The notes below the pieces were generated by a model, which did no database searches, was not told where the DNA came from, and saw nothing but the letters and a program-made list of their open reading frames with translations. A stretch of 64,000 nucleotides of DNA. It comes from Terriglobia bacterium. GTDB lineage: Bacteria > Acidobacteriota > Terriglobia > 2-12-FULL-54-10. The stretch spans positions 1,920,001 to 1,984,000 of the forward strand of contig CAXVYR010000004.1 of the NCBI GenBank assembly GCA_963666975.2. Direction: 5' to 3'. A program made the translations under genes and the position numbers. Shown piece by piece: positions 56,850-63,984 of this stretch (positions within the stretch are counted from its first letter, which is position 1; every line of letters begins with the position of its first letter).

Positions 56850-57641
56850 GAGAACATCTTATCGGGTCTGTCCCTGATTTCCTTGCGATTTTTTGCCTGT
56901 CTGCCGTCTGATCGGTGAAAAATTTGGGACAGGTCCCCTATAGCCTTTCTGAATTTCTCTTTACGTCCTCACCCGGTTTGCACATAGCGGCCCTTCTTGT
57001 CGGGGTATTAGCCATCCTCTCGGCCAAGGTGATATCTGAGAGTATCCCTGAAGCCAAAGAGAGCCTGAAATCTAAGAGTGTGAAAAAATTGGACATGTTA
57101 ATTAGCCTAAGCGGACCCCGGCATGGCGACCTCAAATCACCCTTACCGAAGTTTGATGATTAATGCACGACTCCTGACCGTCTACTCCGTTACCCAGCCA
57201 GCCCTTTTTATTTTTGCTGAGACCGGCCAGTAGAGTAAAAGATAGATTAACCGAATCAATTAACGCGCCGCTTGTTCGATACTCGTCAAATCTTCCGCAG
57301 GCAGTGTGGTTCTTCATTCCAGATCAAGAGATCAGACTCTGAACGGCGACATCCGTTTTTTTCTTGGTGACCGGTTCTTCTTCATGGCAAGCGGCCCTCC
57401 ATGACCGTTGACCATTAATGAAGCGAAGAATCTCTGTGGCGTATCGTGCCCGAGTACGCCGTCAACAGACCATTCCGGGCGATGGTCGCCTACTCGGAAA
57501 CAATCGCGATCTGCGGGCCTTCAACGCTCGCCCAACAGCAGCAAGCGATGACCGATGCGGTTCGCGCGGGCCGCCCGGTAGGGGAAGTGATGGCAGGCAT
57601 GGCGTATGAATCCATGCTTCTCCCGAAACAGAAGCCATAAT

Positions 57642-58295
57642 ATGGATGAGTTGGTTACAGCTTTTCAGGAAATTTCTCTCACGGCGGTTTCCGACGCTCT
57701 GGATCGCTGCGGGCTGCATGGAACCTGCCTGGGTATCTCCCCGGTTGCGTTTGGCTGTCAGACGGCGGGACGCGCCTTTACTGTGAAATACCATCCCGTC
57801 GGCGTGGAAAAGGGCACCGTCGGAGACTTTATTAACGATGTGCCCCAGGGCCATGTTGTAGTGCTCGATAATGCAGGCCGTCTCGATTGCACCGTTTGGG
57901 GAGATCTATTAACCCTCGTGGCTCATCGAAAGGGCCTCGCGGGGACTGTGATCGACGGAGTTTGCCGGGATGTAAAGCGCAGCGTGGAAATCGGCTATCC
58001 GATTTTCAGTCGCGGCCGGTTTATGCGCACCGGGAAGGATCGAGTCGAGGTGGCCGGGATCAACGCGCCCGTTGAAATCGGAGGTGTGCAGGTGCGACCT
58101 GGGGACATGATCCTCGGATCCGACGATGGCGTCCTCATCGTACCCCAGGAAAAAGAAGCTGAAATTTTGTCGATTGCGCGGTCGGTCGAAGAAACGGAAG
58201 AAAGGATTCGAACCGAGCTGTTAGAAGGGACCCCGCTGAAGCAGGCGCGCCGGAAGCATGGCTACCATCGACTGCAACGGAGACAAAGTAATTAA
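57642..58295 (+). CDS. RraA-family protein (HMG/CHA aldolase-like)
   Basis: AVSDALD, GRAFTV, VWGDLL, DGVCRD, PGDMILGSDDGV. Confidence 0.88.
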   Translation: MDELVTAFQEISLTAVSDALDRCGLHGTCLGISPVAFGCQTAGRAFTVKYHPVGVEKGTVGDFINDVPQGHVVVLDNAGRLDCTVWGDLLTLVAHRKGLAGTVIDGVCRDVKRSVEIGYPIFSRGRFMRTGKDRVEVAGINAPVEIGGVQVRPGDMILGSDDGVLIVPQEKEAEILSIARSVEETEERIRTELLEGTPLKQARRKHGYHRLQRRQSN

Positions 58296-58344: not shown

Positions 58345-58980
58345 TTGCCTGATGGCGAGAGAGTAATTTCCCGTCCCGATTCCGCGCTGATTCAGCGCGC
58401 CGCGAAATTTTCTACGGCGACACTGGGGGAAGCCACCGGCAAACCGATTGACCTTCCCGTGGCCATCAAGCCGGTTTCACCCAGGATGAGGGCATGCGGC
58501 CCGGCCGTTACGGTCGCCTCTCCTGCTCGGGATAACCTGACGCTTCATCAGGCAATCTACGTTGCGAACCCGGGAGACGTGCTCGTAGTAGAGGTGTCCG
58601 GGCTCTACGAGGCAGGTTATTGGGAGGATATCATGACCCATGCCGCCCTCCATCGCAAGATTGCCGGCTTGGTGATCGATGGGTGTGTGCGGGACAGTGA
58701 CGCCATTGAGGAGGCGGGATTCCCGGTCTTTTCCAGAGGTCTTTGTATTCGCGGCACAGCGAAACGGGGAAAAGGCAAGATGAACCAGCCCATCACGATC
58801 GGCGAGGTCTCGATTAGGCCGGGGGATTTGGTTGTTGGTGACAGGGATGGCGTCGTGGTCATCCCCCAGTCGGAGATACTCGAAGTTTTGGCGGAGGCGG
58901 GAAAGCGCGATCAGAAGGAGAACCGGGTCAAGGACGAGCTGGCGGCAGGCAAAACCACGCTCGAGATCTACGGATGGTGA
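58345..58980 (+). CDS. RraA-family HMG/CHA aldolase (LigK/GalC-like)
   Basis: STATLGEA, GPAVTV, DNLTLHQAI, DGCVRD, PGDLVVGDRDGV; GYWED where WG(D/E) is usual. Confidence 0.85.
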   Translation: MPDGERVISRPDSALIQRAAKFSTATLGEATGKPIDLPVAIKPVSPRMRACGPAVTVASPARDNLTLHQAIYVANPGDVLVVEVSGLYEAGYWEDIMTHAALHRKIAGLVIDGCVRDSDAIEEAGFPVFSRGLCIRGTAKRGKGKMNQPITIGEVSIRPGDLVVGDRDGVVVIPQSEILEVLAEAGKRDQKENRVKDELAAGKTTLEIYGW

Positions 58981-59161: not shown

Positions 59162-61237
59162 TCAGAACATTTCCGGGAAGGAAAACGTCAGCACGGCGTT
59201 GAGGCGCTTGTCGCTCACAATCAATTCCTTGTGCTTGGGATTGAGCGCAACCCCGCGCGGCATTTGGAGCACTCCTTTGGGGCCTCCAATCCGCCACCGG
59301 GGCGGAACGTCTCCATTGTCCTCAACGCTCCATATGCCGACATAGGCGGTATCGGAGGCCAGCTCTCCCTCGCCCCGGTCGCCGAGAATGATCCACCCGC
59401 GGGGCGGATAGACGGTGAACGGCCCGGAAAGTCTTCGGAAGCCGCTTTTCGGCCCTCCGATGATTGCCTTGGGTTTCACGTTGCCGTTGTCGGTGCGGTT
59501 GAAGATCAGGATGCGGGGCGTCTCCGGTTCGCCGGGCAGCTCGCTCACCACGATCAGCAGGTTATGGACCGGATCCACGGCCACTGCGTTGGTGTCGAGC
59601 AGCGTGTCCAGACCTTGTAATACCCGAATCGGCGCAACGTCGCCGTTGCCGTCCCGGGGATAGACGAGCACTTTGTCCGTTTGGGGGACAAAGATCTCGT
59701 TGTGCACCGGGTCCACGGCCAGCCGGTTGGGATAGGTCAGGCCGGTGCTGGGGCCCTGGATGTAGCGCACCGGCGCTTCCTCCCCACTCGCTCCTCCCCG
59801 GAACGCCAGAATGGCCTGGGGAAACGGCACCGGAAGGAAAAACTCATCATGAACCTCGTCATAGACAATCGAGTGCATCGTCCGGCCCAGCAGCGTCTTC
59901 TGCCCTTCGAGCTTCCGCATCGGCTTCGCTCCCCCATCCGCCAACCTGGCGAATGTCGCAATCTGCGGATGCGCCACTCAGTTCGGCACCAGAATCTCTT
60001 CCCGCTTGCTGTCGTACGCCACCGGATGCGGGTTCCCGATCCCCAGCGCCGGCTCATCCAGCGGCCCGCTCCGGATGATCCGCAGCGGTTCGACGTCGCC
60101 CGAAGCCCCTCTCGGATAAACCGTCGCCGAATGGTTTCCGAAGTTGGCCGCCCATAACTCGTCGTTTTCCAGGTCCAGATACACGCCGGTTGGATTCTTG
60201 AGATGCGTCTTCGGGCCCTGGACCACCCGGATCGGCGCGGCATCACCGTTTGCTGTCGTGCTTAAGATCAATATCGAGTTCCCCATGTCATTAGCCACAT
60301 ACAGCTCCCCGCGCTCCACGTCGATGGCCAGATGCGCCGACCAGTTCATCTGCGTCTTCGGCCCCTCGATCACGCGCAGCGGCGGCGTGTCCCCGCTGGC
60401 ATCCAGCGCATAGACGGTGATCGAGGGCGGTGAAAACTTTCCCGACCCCGGCACCTGTTCCCGCACCGGCCAGTTCTGTTTCCCCTCGGTTCGGTCCGGT
60501 CTGTAAAACGTTCCCCCGGGCCGCTTCTGGTGGGAGTTGCCGTAGTTGCTCACGAACATCACTTTGTTCTTTGTGTCGATGGCGATCCCGTGCGGATCTT
60601 CTAGTTTGGTTCGCTCCCCCTGGAGAAGCCGGAGCGGAGACTCGTCTTTCACGGCCGATTTCCGGAAGACCACGACGGCATTATCATGCTGCTCGGTCAG
60701 GAACATTTCCTGCGCTTCCTCGTCCACCGCGATCCCGAATGTCCCGTGCGGCGTGTACAACTCGCGCGTCGGCGGCACGTTCCCTTTTGCATCCCGGCCA
60801 AAGATCACCAACGTGTCCACCGTGTCGTTGTTTACTCCGTAGATGTCGCCGCTGGCCGGGTCGATGTACAGTCCGCATTGGAACTCGATCTTGGTATTCA
60901 GTCCTCCGATCATCCGCTTCGGCTCGGTCATCGTGGCCGTCGGCGGAGTGTTGTCCAGCCGGTCGTACACCAGAATGTTGAACAGGTTCTCGTCTGTCAG
61001 CACCACCTCGTTGCGGATCGGGTCCACGGCCACCGCGCTGTAGGCCGCATACGGGTCTCGGATCATCCGGACCGGCTTCCGCTGGGGGAAATCTCCTCCC
61101 TGGGACTGGCCGTCCCCCCGCGCCGCCAGCCGCTCCTGCCGGAACGCCATCAGATGACTCGTACTCGCCGGCATCCACTGACACATCTCCCCGTCCATCT
61201 CTCGAATCGGTGTGGGTAGCGGCGTAATGGAAAGCAA
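59162..61237 (-). CDS. NHL/YncE-like double beta-propeller protein with an in-frame TGA at 59978-59980 (candidate selenocysteine)
   Basis: About 12 repeats of the type P.GIAVD...E(L/I)FV.N...I.VY.R.A.G...P.R.I.G..T.L. The two ORFs abut in frame (VPN-TGA-VAHPQ) and split one blade; 691 aa if read through. Confidence 0.75.
59947..59976 (-). promoter_or_regulatory. SECIS-like stem-loop immediately 3' of the in-frame UGA
   Basis: mRNA UGA-G-UGGCGCAUCCGCA-GAU-UGCGACAUUCGCCA: UGGCG/CGCCA, AU/AU and CGCA/UGCG stems with a G-first loop. Confidence 0.5.
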
Positions 61238-61400
61238 TCGAGCCGACCCGGCCCCCCTCGCAGCAAATCCTGCCGGTCTTCCCCTGGGCTCCCGCTGTAT
61301 AGGACAAGTCCTCCGAGGACGCTCAGGTAATGGGGTCTTTTAGCTTGAAACAGGATGGGCCCGGTGCCAAATGATTTGGCACCGAAATATGGCGGAACGT

Positions 61401-61937
61401 TTAGCTATAGGATTGGATCACTTTTCTGACGCTCTTGCGGTGTGCAATCAAGCGCGCTTTTAATTCTTCCATTTCGCGGCTCCCCCCAATCAAGGGCAAT
61501 CTAATCGCGTTAGCACGAAATATCCGCTTGATTCGCTTCAGCATTAGGGTCGCTGGAATGCCCTGCTCATTGTGGCGGGCTGTCTCTTTTGCCAACCGAT
61601 ATACATCGCCAGAGGCTAAGGCCAAAAAATAAGCATGTGCCAACAAGAATTGGTCCACAGCAATCACGGCTGTTCTCTTGTTACCATTGGAAAACGAATG
61701 GTTGGTGACGAGGGAATGGAAAAGGGCTGCGGACTTATCGATAATCGTGCGATGTATGCTCTTGCCAAAGGCAGACTGAAATGGCCTATTTACCGCTGAA
61801 TCAAGAAGACGCACATCCCGATACTCTCCTGGACGGACGGGCTCGTCAAATGGCCAGTATTTCGAGACAAGCTCGTCATGGACCATTTCAACATAGGCCG
61901 TGCTCAACCTTATGTAACGAGCACTATTCCTTGGCAA
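61401..61937 (-). CDS. Doc/Fic-family toxin
   Basis: LLDSAVNRP, Doc-type motif HSFSNGNKRTA. Confidence 0.88.
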   Translation of the reverse strand: MPRNSARYIRLSTAYVEMVHDELVSKYWPFDEPVRPGEYRDVRLLDSAVNRPFQSAFGKSIHRTIIDKSAALFHSLVTNHSFSNGNKRTAVIAVDQFLLAHAYFLALASGDVYRLAKETARHNEQGIPATLMLKRIKRIFRANAIRLPLIGGSREMEELKARLIAHRKSVRKVIQSYS

Positions 61938-62091
61938 GTTTTTTCAGGGCATCGTAATATTTGGCGGCAGAGACCACGACGGCTGGATCAACCCTTGCAC
62001 CAGCCTTAGAGAGCTTCCTGGAGATGCGAGGGGTGTTTTTTTCGATATTGCGGCCAAGGATTTTCACGTTCTGTTTTACCTGTACGGTCAT
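61924..62091 (-). CDS. Small (55 aa) putative antitoxin, not in the ORF track
   Basis: AGGAGG RBS; MTVQVKQNVK...SAAKYYDALKKLAKE*; overlaps the toxin start; C-terminal helix resembles Doc-neutralising antitoxins. Confidence 0.7.
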   Translation of the reverse strand: MTVQVKQNVKILGRNIEKNTPRISRKLSKAGARVDPAVVVSAAKYYDALKKLAKE

Positions 62092-62180: not shown

Positions 62181-63241
62181 TGTCGTTAGCACATGATATG
62201 TCCGGTGGAAATAGCAAGTGAAGTGTCCGCTTGGAAGGCGGTCTGGGGTAAGAGCATCTATCCAGGAGGTGGAGATGGAGTCATACCCGAGGGCCGCGAT
62301 GGAGCGGGCAATGAAGATACAAGAAGTAATCTTGCGAGCGATAGGGAAGCGGATCAACTGGTGGCAGGCAGCCGAGATCATCGGGATCAGCGACCGGCAG
62401 ATGCGGCGGTGGCGCAGCCGGTAGGAGCAGGACGGCTACGACGGGCTGTTTGACCGGCGGCGGGGGAAACCAAGCCCGCGGCGGGTACCCCTGGGGACGA
62501 TGGAGAAGGTGCGGGGCTGGTAAACAAGAGGCGGAAGCGGGGCCTTCACCGCCAGCGGCGGCCCCGGCGGCCGTTGCCGGGGATGCTGCTGCATCTGGAT
62601 GGGAGCCAGCATCGGTGGTTTGCCGACGATCGCTGGTATGACCTGCTGGTGGTTCTGGATGATGGCAGCAGCGGAATTTACTATGCACAGCTGGTAGAGC
62701 AGGAATCGACGCGGACGGTGCTGGCTGCTCTGCGGGAGCTGGGCATTCAGATGATTCCGGCCTACTCGCCGCAGGCGCGAGGACGTGGCGAGCGGAATTT
62801 CGGGACCTGGCAAGGGCGGCTGCCGCAGGAACTGCGCCTGCGGGGGATCACGACGCTAAGAGGCCGCGAATGAGTTCCTGCGGGAGGGCTATATCGGGGA
62901 GTTCAATCGGCGCTTTGCCGTGCCGGCCGCCCAACAGGGCAGCGCCTTTTTGCCGTCAGCCAGACGGGAGTTAGGCCGCATCTTCTCGATCCAGCACGAA
63001 CGGGTGGTCAATCGGGACAATATGGACCGCACACAGTGGGCCGCTACTCCTCTGTGGGGGTGGCGGTCCGGTGCGGCGGCGGTCGGCGGCGGAGCCCACT
63101 GGCTTCCCGACGACACCATTCGGCGCTCACCTCAGTCGCCCTACGGGCTCCTTCGGTCAGCGCCGAACCACTCTCGGTAGGATCATGAAACCGGACACTT
63201 CACTTGCTACAAATACCGGACATTTCAACTTGCTAACAACA
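62181..63241 (+). mobile_element. Degenerate ISNCY/IS1202-like element with an internally deleted transposase
   Basis: Ends TGTCGTTAGCA / TGCTAACAACA with internal repeated TAGCAAGTGAAGTGTCCG-like boxes; fragments AAEIIGISDRQMRR, LLHLDGS.H.W, AYSPQARGR.ER.FGTWQGRL; stops and frameshifts. Confidence 0.8.
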
Positions 63242-63343: not shown

Positions 63344-63984
63344 CATGGAGAAGCTGAAAGGAAAGAACCGTTCTGCCGGCCACGGGTTTGCCAAATAAAG
63401 TGGCCGGGTCGAACACCGTAAACAGGAGATGGTTGCGAAGATTGCGGATGGCTTGCGGATCGTCGCTCCCTGCGACAACGTGGTAGTCAGCCACGCGGCC
63501 GTCGTGACTAATCAAGACCTCCACCACGAGCCCTTCCAAAGCGCTGCTGAACTCGAAGGGAGCGCTGCTTCGGAGTCGGGGAGATGTCCCTGAGGTTCAG
63601 CGGCACATCGTCGGAATCCGCCGTCACGGGAGCCGCGAACACGTGAATCAGCGTGCCGAAGATCAGCAGGGCCGAAAGAACCCCTGCCGCGGCCGGGAAA
63701 GCGACCGGAGCCATCAGATTCGCCCATCTCCACCGCCAGCCGGGTTGCTGTGCGCGCCACTTTTCCCGAGAAAGCCGGCGGCGAATCCGAAACCGAAAAT
63801 CGGACGGCAAAGCGGGAGCCGGAAGCTGCTTCAGCAAAGCTCCCACGCCGCGCAACTGCTCCAGTTCCTGCCGGCATTCAAGGCACTTTTCAAGATGACG
63901 GGTCACGGACCCCTGTTGCTGCGGGGAAAGGCATTCCTCCAGGTACGCCGAGAGGAGCTTTTTATTCTTCCAGCAAGCGAGCAT
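63333..63984 (-). CDS. zf-HC2 anti-sigma factor with TM and TonB-C-like periplasmic domain (apparent +1 frameshift at 63588-63590)
   Basis: LSAYLE, HLEKCLEC, TM segment, then VVEVLISHDGRV...FDPATLFGKP in the shifted frame. Confidence 0.8.

Follow-up and report, generated by a model that had tools for sequence, protein, structure and literature searches.

Established bacterial selenoproteins such as SelD, the alpha subunit of formate dehydrogenase, the subunits of glycine reductase and the peroxiredoxin- and thioredoxin-like selenoproteins have a UGA codon for selenocysteine (Sec) at the position of a conserved Cys, and a selenocysteine insertion sequence (SECIS) within the open reading frame (ORF) just downstream of it. 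They depend on selA, selB, selC and selD, and Sec and Cys are repeatedly interchanged among their close relatives. Their fold is thioredoxin-like or that of molybdopterin proteins, and thioredoxin-fold redox proteins dominate the known selenoproteomes. In SECIS elements of the E. coli type (fdhF/fdnG), a hairpin with a G/U-containing apical loop is located in the coding sequence shortly after the UGA. Here we analysed 64,000 nucleotides (nt) of a Terriglobia bacterium (assembly GCA_963666975.2, contig CAXVYR010000004.1, 1,920,001-1,984,000 of the forward strand), referred to as the window, to which all positions without a contig name refer. Positions 59162-61326 of the minus strand very probably are one gene of a double-propeller family, in which an otherwise invariant Cys is encoded by UGA and read as Sec by means of a SECIS inside the ORF. 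The proteins of this family are ~730-780 amino acids (aa) long and begin with a signal anchor; a short linker with a conserved CxW Cys and two six-bladed NHL-type beta-propellers follow. It is a new family within a known kind of protein, the bacterial selenoproteins, and apparently a large and undescribed one of soil and groundwater Acidobacteria. A UGA-encoded Sec in a family absent from the known lists had already been suggested in an initial annotation made from the sequence alone, and the suggestion is supported by the Cys found at this column in homologues, the conservation of the TGA, the Sec machinery of the genome and the covariation of a downstream hairpin.

The propeller family is like the established selenoproteins in the position of the UGA, the location of the SECIS, the machinery and the Sec/Cys interchange, but differs from them in having a tandem NHL beta-propeller with an N-terminal signal anchor and in its very high paralogue numbers. 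Blade repeat and fold are those of the six-bladed NHL propellers (PF01436), which include TRIM2, TRIM71 and Brat, the PknD sensor, NHLRC2 and peptidyl-alpha-hydroxyglycine alpha-amidating lyase (PAL). In contrast to the solved NHL proteins, however, two propellers are arranged in tandem, the sequence relation is very weak (a profile search of the PDB gave weak NHL matches only, with a best E of 6e-6), the family has an invariant residue set of its own, and no solved relative is a selenoprotein. Many full-length Cys homologues carry the automatic names COG3391, 'DNA-binding beta-propeller fold protein YncE' or PF10282 lactonase, which are labels and not statements of a tested function. No description of it was found in literature searches or in the accessible text of PMC13188914, PMC12013277, PMC2398784, PMC9312934 and PMC1794560, although supplementary tables may list it under a generic name, and the terms propeller, NHL, YncE, lactonase and Acidobacteri are absent from the main texts of the 2026 and 2022 selenoproteome reviews. 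According to the accessible text of Zhang et al. 2006, Acidobacteria have 3 selenoprotein families with 4 selenoproteins, and in that of the deep-Sep paper the largest bacterial selenoprotein gene sets, with 39-46 genes, belong to Desulfobacterota-type anaerobes.

The gene appears in the window as two ORFs, A and B (Table 1), which adjoin in frame; as the initial annotation had noticed, the TGA at 59980-59978 is their sole separator, and ORF list and read-through frame agree in this. The read-through frame contains two TGAs, one at residue 441 (numbering of the read-through translation P0001) and the other as terminal stop. Direct inspection of the sequence confirmed that the GTG of ORF B is not preceded by a Shine-Dalgarno sequence. 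The GC content of the region (0.58-0.60) is unremarkable. Orthologues from two sister genomes (L033 and L032) are 89-90% identical to the window gene at the nucleotide level over ~2.2 kb (blastn).

Residues 300-600 of the fused protein were used as query against a catalogue of 5.8 billion proteins, in which 2573 homologues were found at E<=1e-3; the best 120 of them mostly have 700-770 aa and are up to 67% identical. The column of the TGA is occupied by Cys in all 36 aligned full-length homologues, within the near-invariant motif (I/L)-L-V-P-N-C-V-A-H-P-Q-I. The homologues end with ...FPE(M/L)F exactly at the second TGA of the window gene; therefore, TGA is a stop at the end of the gene and something else at residue 441. 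The source genome contains nine LVPN-TGA-V-x-HP sites, i.e. the window copy, a remnant with an internal deletion and seven further full-length paralogues of 58-69% identity, and all nine have the TGA, as have 26 of 26 loci of the first relatives. Among 61 related genomes, the family protein is present in 12 of the 13 genomes of the same family with many matches each (14-21 in most), and exactly one in-frame TGA was found in 148 of the ~150 matches listed. Sixty further copies were fetched, of which 58 have TGA and two TGC (both in bin G011) at this column; two of the 60 loci were missed by the motif pattern. A scan of one genome per species gave 177 relatives. The best 80 were carried forward, and 79 loci of these yielded 87 sites, 76 with TGA and 11 with TGC or TGT. 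The alternation of Cys and TGA at a single column, which had been named beforehand as the signature to look for, is thus present. Nor is the TGA confined to this assembly: altogether, 147 distinct TGA-bearing relatives from many genomes have it at the identical column, and the titles of the respective bins are Terriglobia, Solibacteraceae, Bryobacteraceae, Acidobacteria gp5, Candidatus Binatia, Verrucomicrobiia, Planctomycetota, Deltaproteobacteria and Luteitalea. A pattern composed of TGA and SECIS, scanned with up to 3 mismatches so that more divergent Sec forms would escape, matched 25, 22, 19, 18 and 16 sites in five related genomes and 9 in the source genome; the reversed control pattern matched none. 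In an even sample of the phylum, this pattern was found in 2 of 401 genomes, the source genome with its 9 sites and G166 with one site; therefore, the Sec form is patchy across the phylum, and the exact signature is rare outside the family to which the window belongs.

Next to the codon itself, the source genome has the Sec machinery for which the initial annotation had proposed to look. The tRNA-Sec scored 72.8 bits (ARAGORN: tRNA-SeC, anticodon tca), and selB (371.8 bits), selA (563.5 bits) and selD (349.5 bits) are all over cut-off. The frames of selA and selB are open and have no internal TGA. The selD gene (G000:C4:1360322-1361257) is itself a selenoprotein gene with one in-frame TGA at ...VKAAG-U-ASKLSP; its hairpin GUCCAAA-GGU-UUUGGAC, with 7 base pairs (bp), begins 14 nt after the UGA and has the apex A-GGU-U that is also found in helix 2 of the propeller gene (see below). 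In the ordinary bacterial route, SelD would make selenophosphate, SelA would convert Ser-tRNA(Sec) and SelB would deliver the Sec-tRNA to the ribosome on meeting the mRNA element inside the ORF. Here, this element would be made up of a mini-hairpin at +13..+25, counted from the U of the UGA, and an 8-bp hairpin with an A-GG-N-U apical loop at +26..+46.

Evidence for such an element came from the comparison of Sec and Cys forms. In the Sec forms (n = 147), the codons from +12 to +41 are nearly frozen at synonymous sites (Pro CCG 146, Ala GCG 141, Phe TTC 140, Ala GCC 136, Arg AGG 141 and Ala GCG 138 of 147), but the Cys forms (n = 11) use other codons for the same residues (Arg CGC 6, CGG 1, AGG 1; Ala GCC 1), and the synonymous codons are fixed in the Sec forms only. 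In an alignment of 145 distinct sequences (A2), pairing was compared with that of slid partners and of 500 shuffles. The two-hairpin structure was paired in 94.3% of the cells compared to 37-60% with the partner slid. The covariation of the downstream hairpin that had been suggested as a check was indeed found: changes on both sides of a pair amounted to 88 cells versus 30.5±6.0 in the shuffles, none of the 500 reaching 88, values which overstate the significance and are not probabilities since related sequences are non-independent. The slid controls and the contrast between Sec and Cys forms are free of this problem. Helix 1 was paired in 93.8% of the cells, with 2 compensatory CG>AU changes in one pair, and helix 2 was paired in 94.6% of the cells. 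The outermost-but-one pair of helix 2 (33-51 of A2) joins two wobble positions and was found as CG 28, AU 27, GC 26, UA 18 and GU 2 times, 44 sequences being unpaired; the inner pairs had rarer compensations (CG>UA 5, GC>CG 2, CG>AU 1). The window copy has kept all 8 pairs of helix 2. Of the 12 pairs, Cys forms retain 6-11 (mean 8) and have lost the AGG loop, compared to a mean of 11.3 in the Sec forms. The gene therefore has a stem-loop within tens of nt 3' of the UGA whose support goes beyond coding constraint.

The hairpin of ~30 nt drawn in the initial annotation stood in part. Its apical stem CGCA-GAU-UGCG is part of helix 1 and was paired to 93.1% over the 145 relatives, but its outer stem was paired to 71.6% without any compensatory change, with one pair in 36 of 145, and competes with the far better supported helix 2 (99% paired). 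The main element, the 8-bp hairpin, lies just 3' of that apical stem and was absent from the drawing. Compared to the E. coli-type SECIS, the element of the propeller family is alike in being a hairpin in the coding sequence with G/U apical nucleotides; unlike it, there are two hairpins, a mini-hairpin of 3-4 bp at the usual spacing and a better supported one whose loop is ~34-38 nt from the UGA. A scan of 59800-60100 gave no relevant Rfam family.

At the level of the family, the selenoprotein reading is strongly supported by these comparisons. Several observations weigh against it or limit it. Insertion of selenium at residue 441 is a prediction from sequence comparison, and nearly all genomes used are metagenome bins. 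By folding energy, the 66-nt region does not stand out (z -1.06; 30 of 200 shuffles are at least as stable), and comparative analysis was used for the SECIS for this reason. Of the 145 sequences, 6 lack pair 37-47 of helix 2 and 44 lack pair 33-51. The loop of helix 2 is farther from the UGA (~34-38 nt) than that of selD in the same genome (~24-26 nt), and therefore either hairpin could be the one bound by SelB. Of 14 genomes of the family, 11 have a selA match over cut-off. The three without one are G001 (95% complete), which nevertheless has 22 TGA sites, G006 (88% complete) and G007 (78%); selB is over cut-off in each of them, and G001 has a tRNA-Sec of 74 bits as well. Finally, neither a start nor an anchor can be recognised in the window copy, which makes the product of this particular copy doubtful.

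This last point is best seen by comparison with the relatives. The seven other full-length paralogues and both orthologues start with Met and a basic stretch, followed by a hydrophobic segment of ~20 residues and the linker ...RLLSITPLP...MCQW. The best hydropathy window of 19 aa reaches 2.08-2.63 in these seven paralogues but 0.72 upstream in the window copy, and values >=1.6 were found in 72 of 91 copies with enough upstream sequence. No start codon with a hydrophobic signal anchor was found upstream of the CxW linker in the window copy, which therefore does not look like an intact exported member; the initial annotation had rightly cautioned that neither signal peptide nor start was visible at this end. 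Homology to the orthologue in G001 begins at 61326, ~44 codons into the orthologue gene, and beyond this point another segment takes the place of promoter region, start and anchor (Table 1). The ORF with a Fic/DOC domain and the 55-aa ORF in it resemble a toxin-antitoxin cassette and lie exactly where the orthologue has its promoter and initial ~44 codons; start codon and anchor of the window copy have been replaced by this Fic/Doc cassette. The rest of the gene is intact, and its ratio of non-synonymous to synonymous substitution rates (dN/dS) is 0.12 versus both orthologues, equal to that of the orthologue pair (694 codons); therefore, either the loss is recent or the copy is used from another start. 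We consider it probable, though far from certain, that the window copy was recently disabled or is at least non-exported, despite purifying selection on its body. Expression of this copy, for example by read-through from the Fic/Doc operon with a start at the TTG at 61237 or at the ATG of MDGEMCQW, which would give a cytoplasmic or otherwise targeted selenoprotein, is possible but not what we would expect. In its favour, the reading frame contains no additional stop, the TGA is retained together with the 8 pairs of helix 2, the dN/dS matches that of the orthologues, and 75 nt separate the gene from the Fic ORF, which is upstream of it on the same strand. On the other hand, neither candidate start is preceded by a Shine-Dalgarno sequence, the anchor is present in all seven other full-length paralogues and both orthologues, and a loss that happened recently would not show in a dN/dS that averages over the whole divergence.

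Decoding of the UGA as Sec was also weighed against other decodings, namely general read-through, reassignment to Trp or Gly, or insertion of Cys by a Sec-tRNA machinery charged with sulfur. In other systems, Cys has been reported to be inserted at Sec codons when selenium is scarce, and the inserted residue is predicted here from sequence, but TGA is the ordinary stop of this gene and its homologues, selA and selB have frames without internal TGA, and a complete Sec system is present together with a SECIS-like element, which makes decodings of this kind very improbable. Separate translation of two genes whose products assemble into a split propeller after translation is scarcely credible, although gene callers treat the halves in this way. 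ORF B matches 2802 clusters (90% identity) of 'hypothetical proteins' of ~270 aa at E<=1e-20; of the best 120 of these, 90 start right after the TGA, 28 start 1-40 codons later, one spans the column with a Cys and one is unclear, and a protein atlas contains Acidobacteriota clusters of 395-504 aa and of 273-303 aa, i.e. Sec forms recorded as halves. However, the split would fall between strands B and C of one blade. The initial annotation had placed it in the middle of a blade, and the AlphaFold2 model agrees, with strands 428-430 and 435-440 before residue 441 and 446-451 and 462-465 after it. Further, the GTG has no Shine-Dalgarno sequence, the codon that follows the TGA encodes the Val that unsplit Cys homologues conserve in their C-V-A-H motif, and the break is always TGA, never TAA or TAG. 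A pseudogene, in which a TGC or TGT codon had mutated to TGA, leaving a protein of 419 residues and ORF B as dead sequence, would agree with the single substitution between TGA and either Cys codon, with the damaged 5' end of the window copy and with decayed family fragments in the genome, but it is already contradicted at the family level and extremely unlikely for this gene, as the same codon would have been lesioned in 147 distinct copies across many genomes, the downstream frame is open and under purifying selection, and the constraint on synonymous sites at the RNA level is confined to TGA forms.

The fold of the protein was modelled by AlphaFold2 from alignment A1 with a predicted local distance difference test (pLDDT) of 88.1 and a predicted template modelling score (pTM) of 0.86. 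Residues 1-70 are disordered (pLDDT <50 for 27-70) and are followed by twelve four-strand groups. VIA-align placed the NHL domain of TRIM2 (7qrv_A) on residues 82..399 with Z 28.5 and a root mean square deviation of 2.2 Å over 250 residues; TRIM71 (Z 28.4) and PAL (Z 25.9) were found on the same residues. Since these six-bladed domains superpose on 82-399 of twelve four-strand groups, the protein is a 6+6 tandem. The remaining VIA-align matches were generic six-bladed NHL, YWTD and SGL propellers, and Foldseek with the whole model gave generic tandem propellers with TM ~0.3, which is information on the fold and not on function. In agreement with the six-bladed fold, Pfam NHL (PF01436) matched with 38.4 bits (cut-off 20). 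Pfam Lactonase (PF10282) scored 30.3 bits (cut-off 21.7) over profile positions 13-125 of 344 only; a seven-bladed lactonase was rejected in view of this partial match and the 6+6 blades of the model. YncE (NCBIfam NF052280) was rejected with 17.8 bits versus a cut-off of 400, and no NCBIfam model came near its cut-off with the fused protein.

In the model, Sec441 follows strand B (435-440) in blade 1 of propeller 2, where the other blades have their N-x-G-N-(S/H) loops. H237, D430, R433, C/U441, R473, H476, Y480 and D485 are conserved in 115 of 115 full-length relatives, and the invariant D430, R433, R473, H476, Y480 and D485 are near Sec441 in sequence. H444 (113 of 115), E486 (110), H390 (108), C40 of the CxW linker (105), H185 (103) and H484 (98) are less strictly conserved. 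Among the His positions pointed out in the initial annotation, those of DPHG and TMHS are His in all 115 relatives, that of TPHG in 103, that of NPHP in 52 and that of SAHL in 12. C142 of the FQCG motif is Cys in 93 and Ser in 20 of them, and hence the CxW Cys (105 of 115) is the better conserved candidate partner Cys. As a general rule, Sec replaces a Cys that is catalytic in redox reactions or a metal ligand, and for this reason a catalytic redox or metal-ligand role would be expected for Sec441 with the nearby invariant His, Asp, Arg and Tyr; the selenol or thiol possibly is a metal ligand together with H444 and other His, or forms a redox pair with C40. A metalloenzyme, possibly with a Cys/Sec redox pair, had been proposed in the initial annotation. 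From the anchor, the family is predicted to be located outside the cytoplasm, and anchor and receptor neighbours (see below) together suggest a periplasm-facing enzyme that acts on imported substrates. Taken further, and only tentatively, the gene may be the founding member of a new selenoenzyme class: a periplasm-facing tandem NHL propeller anchored in the inner membrane, in which Sec441, H444 and the invariant His, Asp, Arg and Tyr make up a catalytic redox or metal centre, with the CxW Cys perhaps as resolving thiol, substrates arriving through TonB-dependent receptors, and Sec being ancestral, the Cys forms being repeated secondary replacements. We regard this full picture as doubtful.

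The relation of Sec and Cys forms was analysed in an unrooted FastTree of 185 sequences (139 Sec, 46 Cys) with the TGA column masked. At least 17 changes between the Sec and the Cys state are required on this tree, and there are well-supported mixed sister groups, for example one of four Cys and four Sec forms with a support of 100; the Cys proteins P0003-P0006 are within branch lengths of 0.03-0.07 of Sec forms. Repeated replacement of Sec by Cys would be the simpler reading because all Sec forms have one SECIS design. Within the family of the window, the sole TGC copies found are G011:C3:221-2335 and G011:C441:4022-6136 (L060 and L061); they may be real Cys paralogues or mis-binned, since they are on short contigs of a bin with 84% completeness and 2% contamination. 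The internally deleted copy (G000:C4:2003617-2005033), ~20 kb past the window end, matches residues 13-174 and 415-712 only; its TGA and SECIS are still there, the latter with a G>A change that restores the pair altered by C>U. Shorter C-terminal fragments of the family were seen at C1:7731-8132, C3:1088474-1088803 and C3:482019-482201.

A constant operon partner was not found among the neighbours of the paralogues in the source genome, which are amidohydrolases, thiamine pyrophosphate enzymes, AsmA, a redoxin, an outer-membrane receptor, a DASS symporter, a sulfite-oxidase-like Mo enzyme with cytochrome c and a transposase. With flanks of 1.5 kb, a TonB-dependent-receptor-like protein adjoins 22 of 102 loci versus ~5.5% of the source-genome bases that are within 1.5 kb of such genes, and an amidohydrolase adjoins 12 of 102 loci versus ~8.2% of the bases. 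Of the two, the receptor link alone looks enriched, which is a hint since the loci are non-independent. Contig G008:C34:1-30775 (L207 and L208) carries five family copies within ~25 kb, interleaved with three TonB-dependent-receptor-like genes, an NMT1-like binding protein, a DASS symporter and a molybdopterin oxidoreductase.

Table 1 Features of the propeller gene and of the segment upstream of it (positions in the window; residues refer to P0001)
Feature	Position	Strand	Description
Gene body read through the TGA	59162..61326	-	blastn homology to the orthologues L033 and L032 of two sister genomes from 61326 to the stop
ORF A	59978..61237	-	Table 11, 419 aa, ends EEILVPN; linker with CxW cysteine, propeller 1 and first two strands of blade 1 of propeller 2
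ORF B	59162..59977	-	Table 11, 271 aa, GTG start (GTG GCG CAT CCG, VAHPQIATF); remainder of propeller 2, no separate gene
In-frame UGA	59978..59980	-	Residue 441 of the read-through translation, motif LVPN-U-VAHPQI
True stop	59162..59164	-	Also TGA; homologues finish at the same ...FPE(M/L)F
SECIS helix 1	59956..59968	-	Mini-hairpin +13..+25 from the U of the UGA, CCGC-AGAUU-GCGG; 3 pairs in the window copy
SECIS helix 2	59935..59955	-	8-bp hairpin +26..+46, NNUUCGCC-AGGNU-GGCGRANN; apical loop AGGUU at 59943-59947
CxW cysteine codon	61181..61183	-	C40, in the disordered linker; candidate partner thiol
Propeller 1	60104..61057	-	Six-bladed NHL, residues ~82-399
Propeller 2	59171..60064	-	Residues ~413-710, six more four-strand groups (DSSP strand list)
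Replacing segment	61327..62181	-	855 nt in place of 378 nt of the orthologue (promoter region and first ~44 codons with start and signal anchor); synteny break (blastn), synteny resumes beyond
Fic/DOC ORF	61401-61937	-	Pfam Fic 57.4 bits; overlaps the upstream 55-aa ORF
55-aa ORF	61924-62091	-	Upstream of the Fic/DOC ORF

With regard to the use of selenium, each of five related Terriglobia bins has 16-25 UGA/SECIS sites from this one family alone. If these sites are indeed read as Sec, up to 25 copies per 3.8-Mb genome would place these Terriglobia among the most selenoprotein-rich bacteria known, and this in soil and groundwater instead of among anaerobic sulfate reducers. Gene callers split every Sec form in two, and recognition of the family would mend thousands of annotations. 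A propeller in which an invariant Cys or Sec stands beside invariant His, Asp, Arg and Tyr differs from the thioredoxin-fold redox proteins and could indicate a chemistry not seen before, and the repeated exchange of Sec and Cys offers natural matched pairs for testing the benefit of selenium.

Some further observations were made around the gene. Long antisense ORFs on the plus strand extend across 59415-61219 (e.g. 59681-60157, 60430-60981 and 60686-61219), as expected in GC-rich coding DNA; in paralogous loci, a naive ORF pick yields antisense ORFs that are longer than the true halves. Two tandem RraA-like/aldolase genes at 57606-58295 and 58345-58980 (plus strand) are convergent on the propeller gene; the former scored 121.9 bits to the RraA-like family of Pfam and the latter is similar by eye only. 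Short ORFs between 62181 and 62992 (e.g. 62218-62424 and 62574-62873) resemble, on visual inspection, pieces of a transposase or integrase, and since a stretch with 88-92% identity is present at the locus of the sister genome, this region is an old remnant. The ORF at 63508-63984 (minus strand) has an N-terminal segment rich in Cys and His (HLEKCLECRQEL) and a hydrophobic stretch, and looks by eye like a zinc-finger anti-sigma factor.

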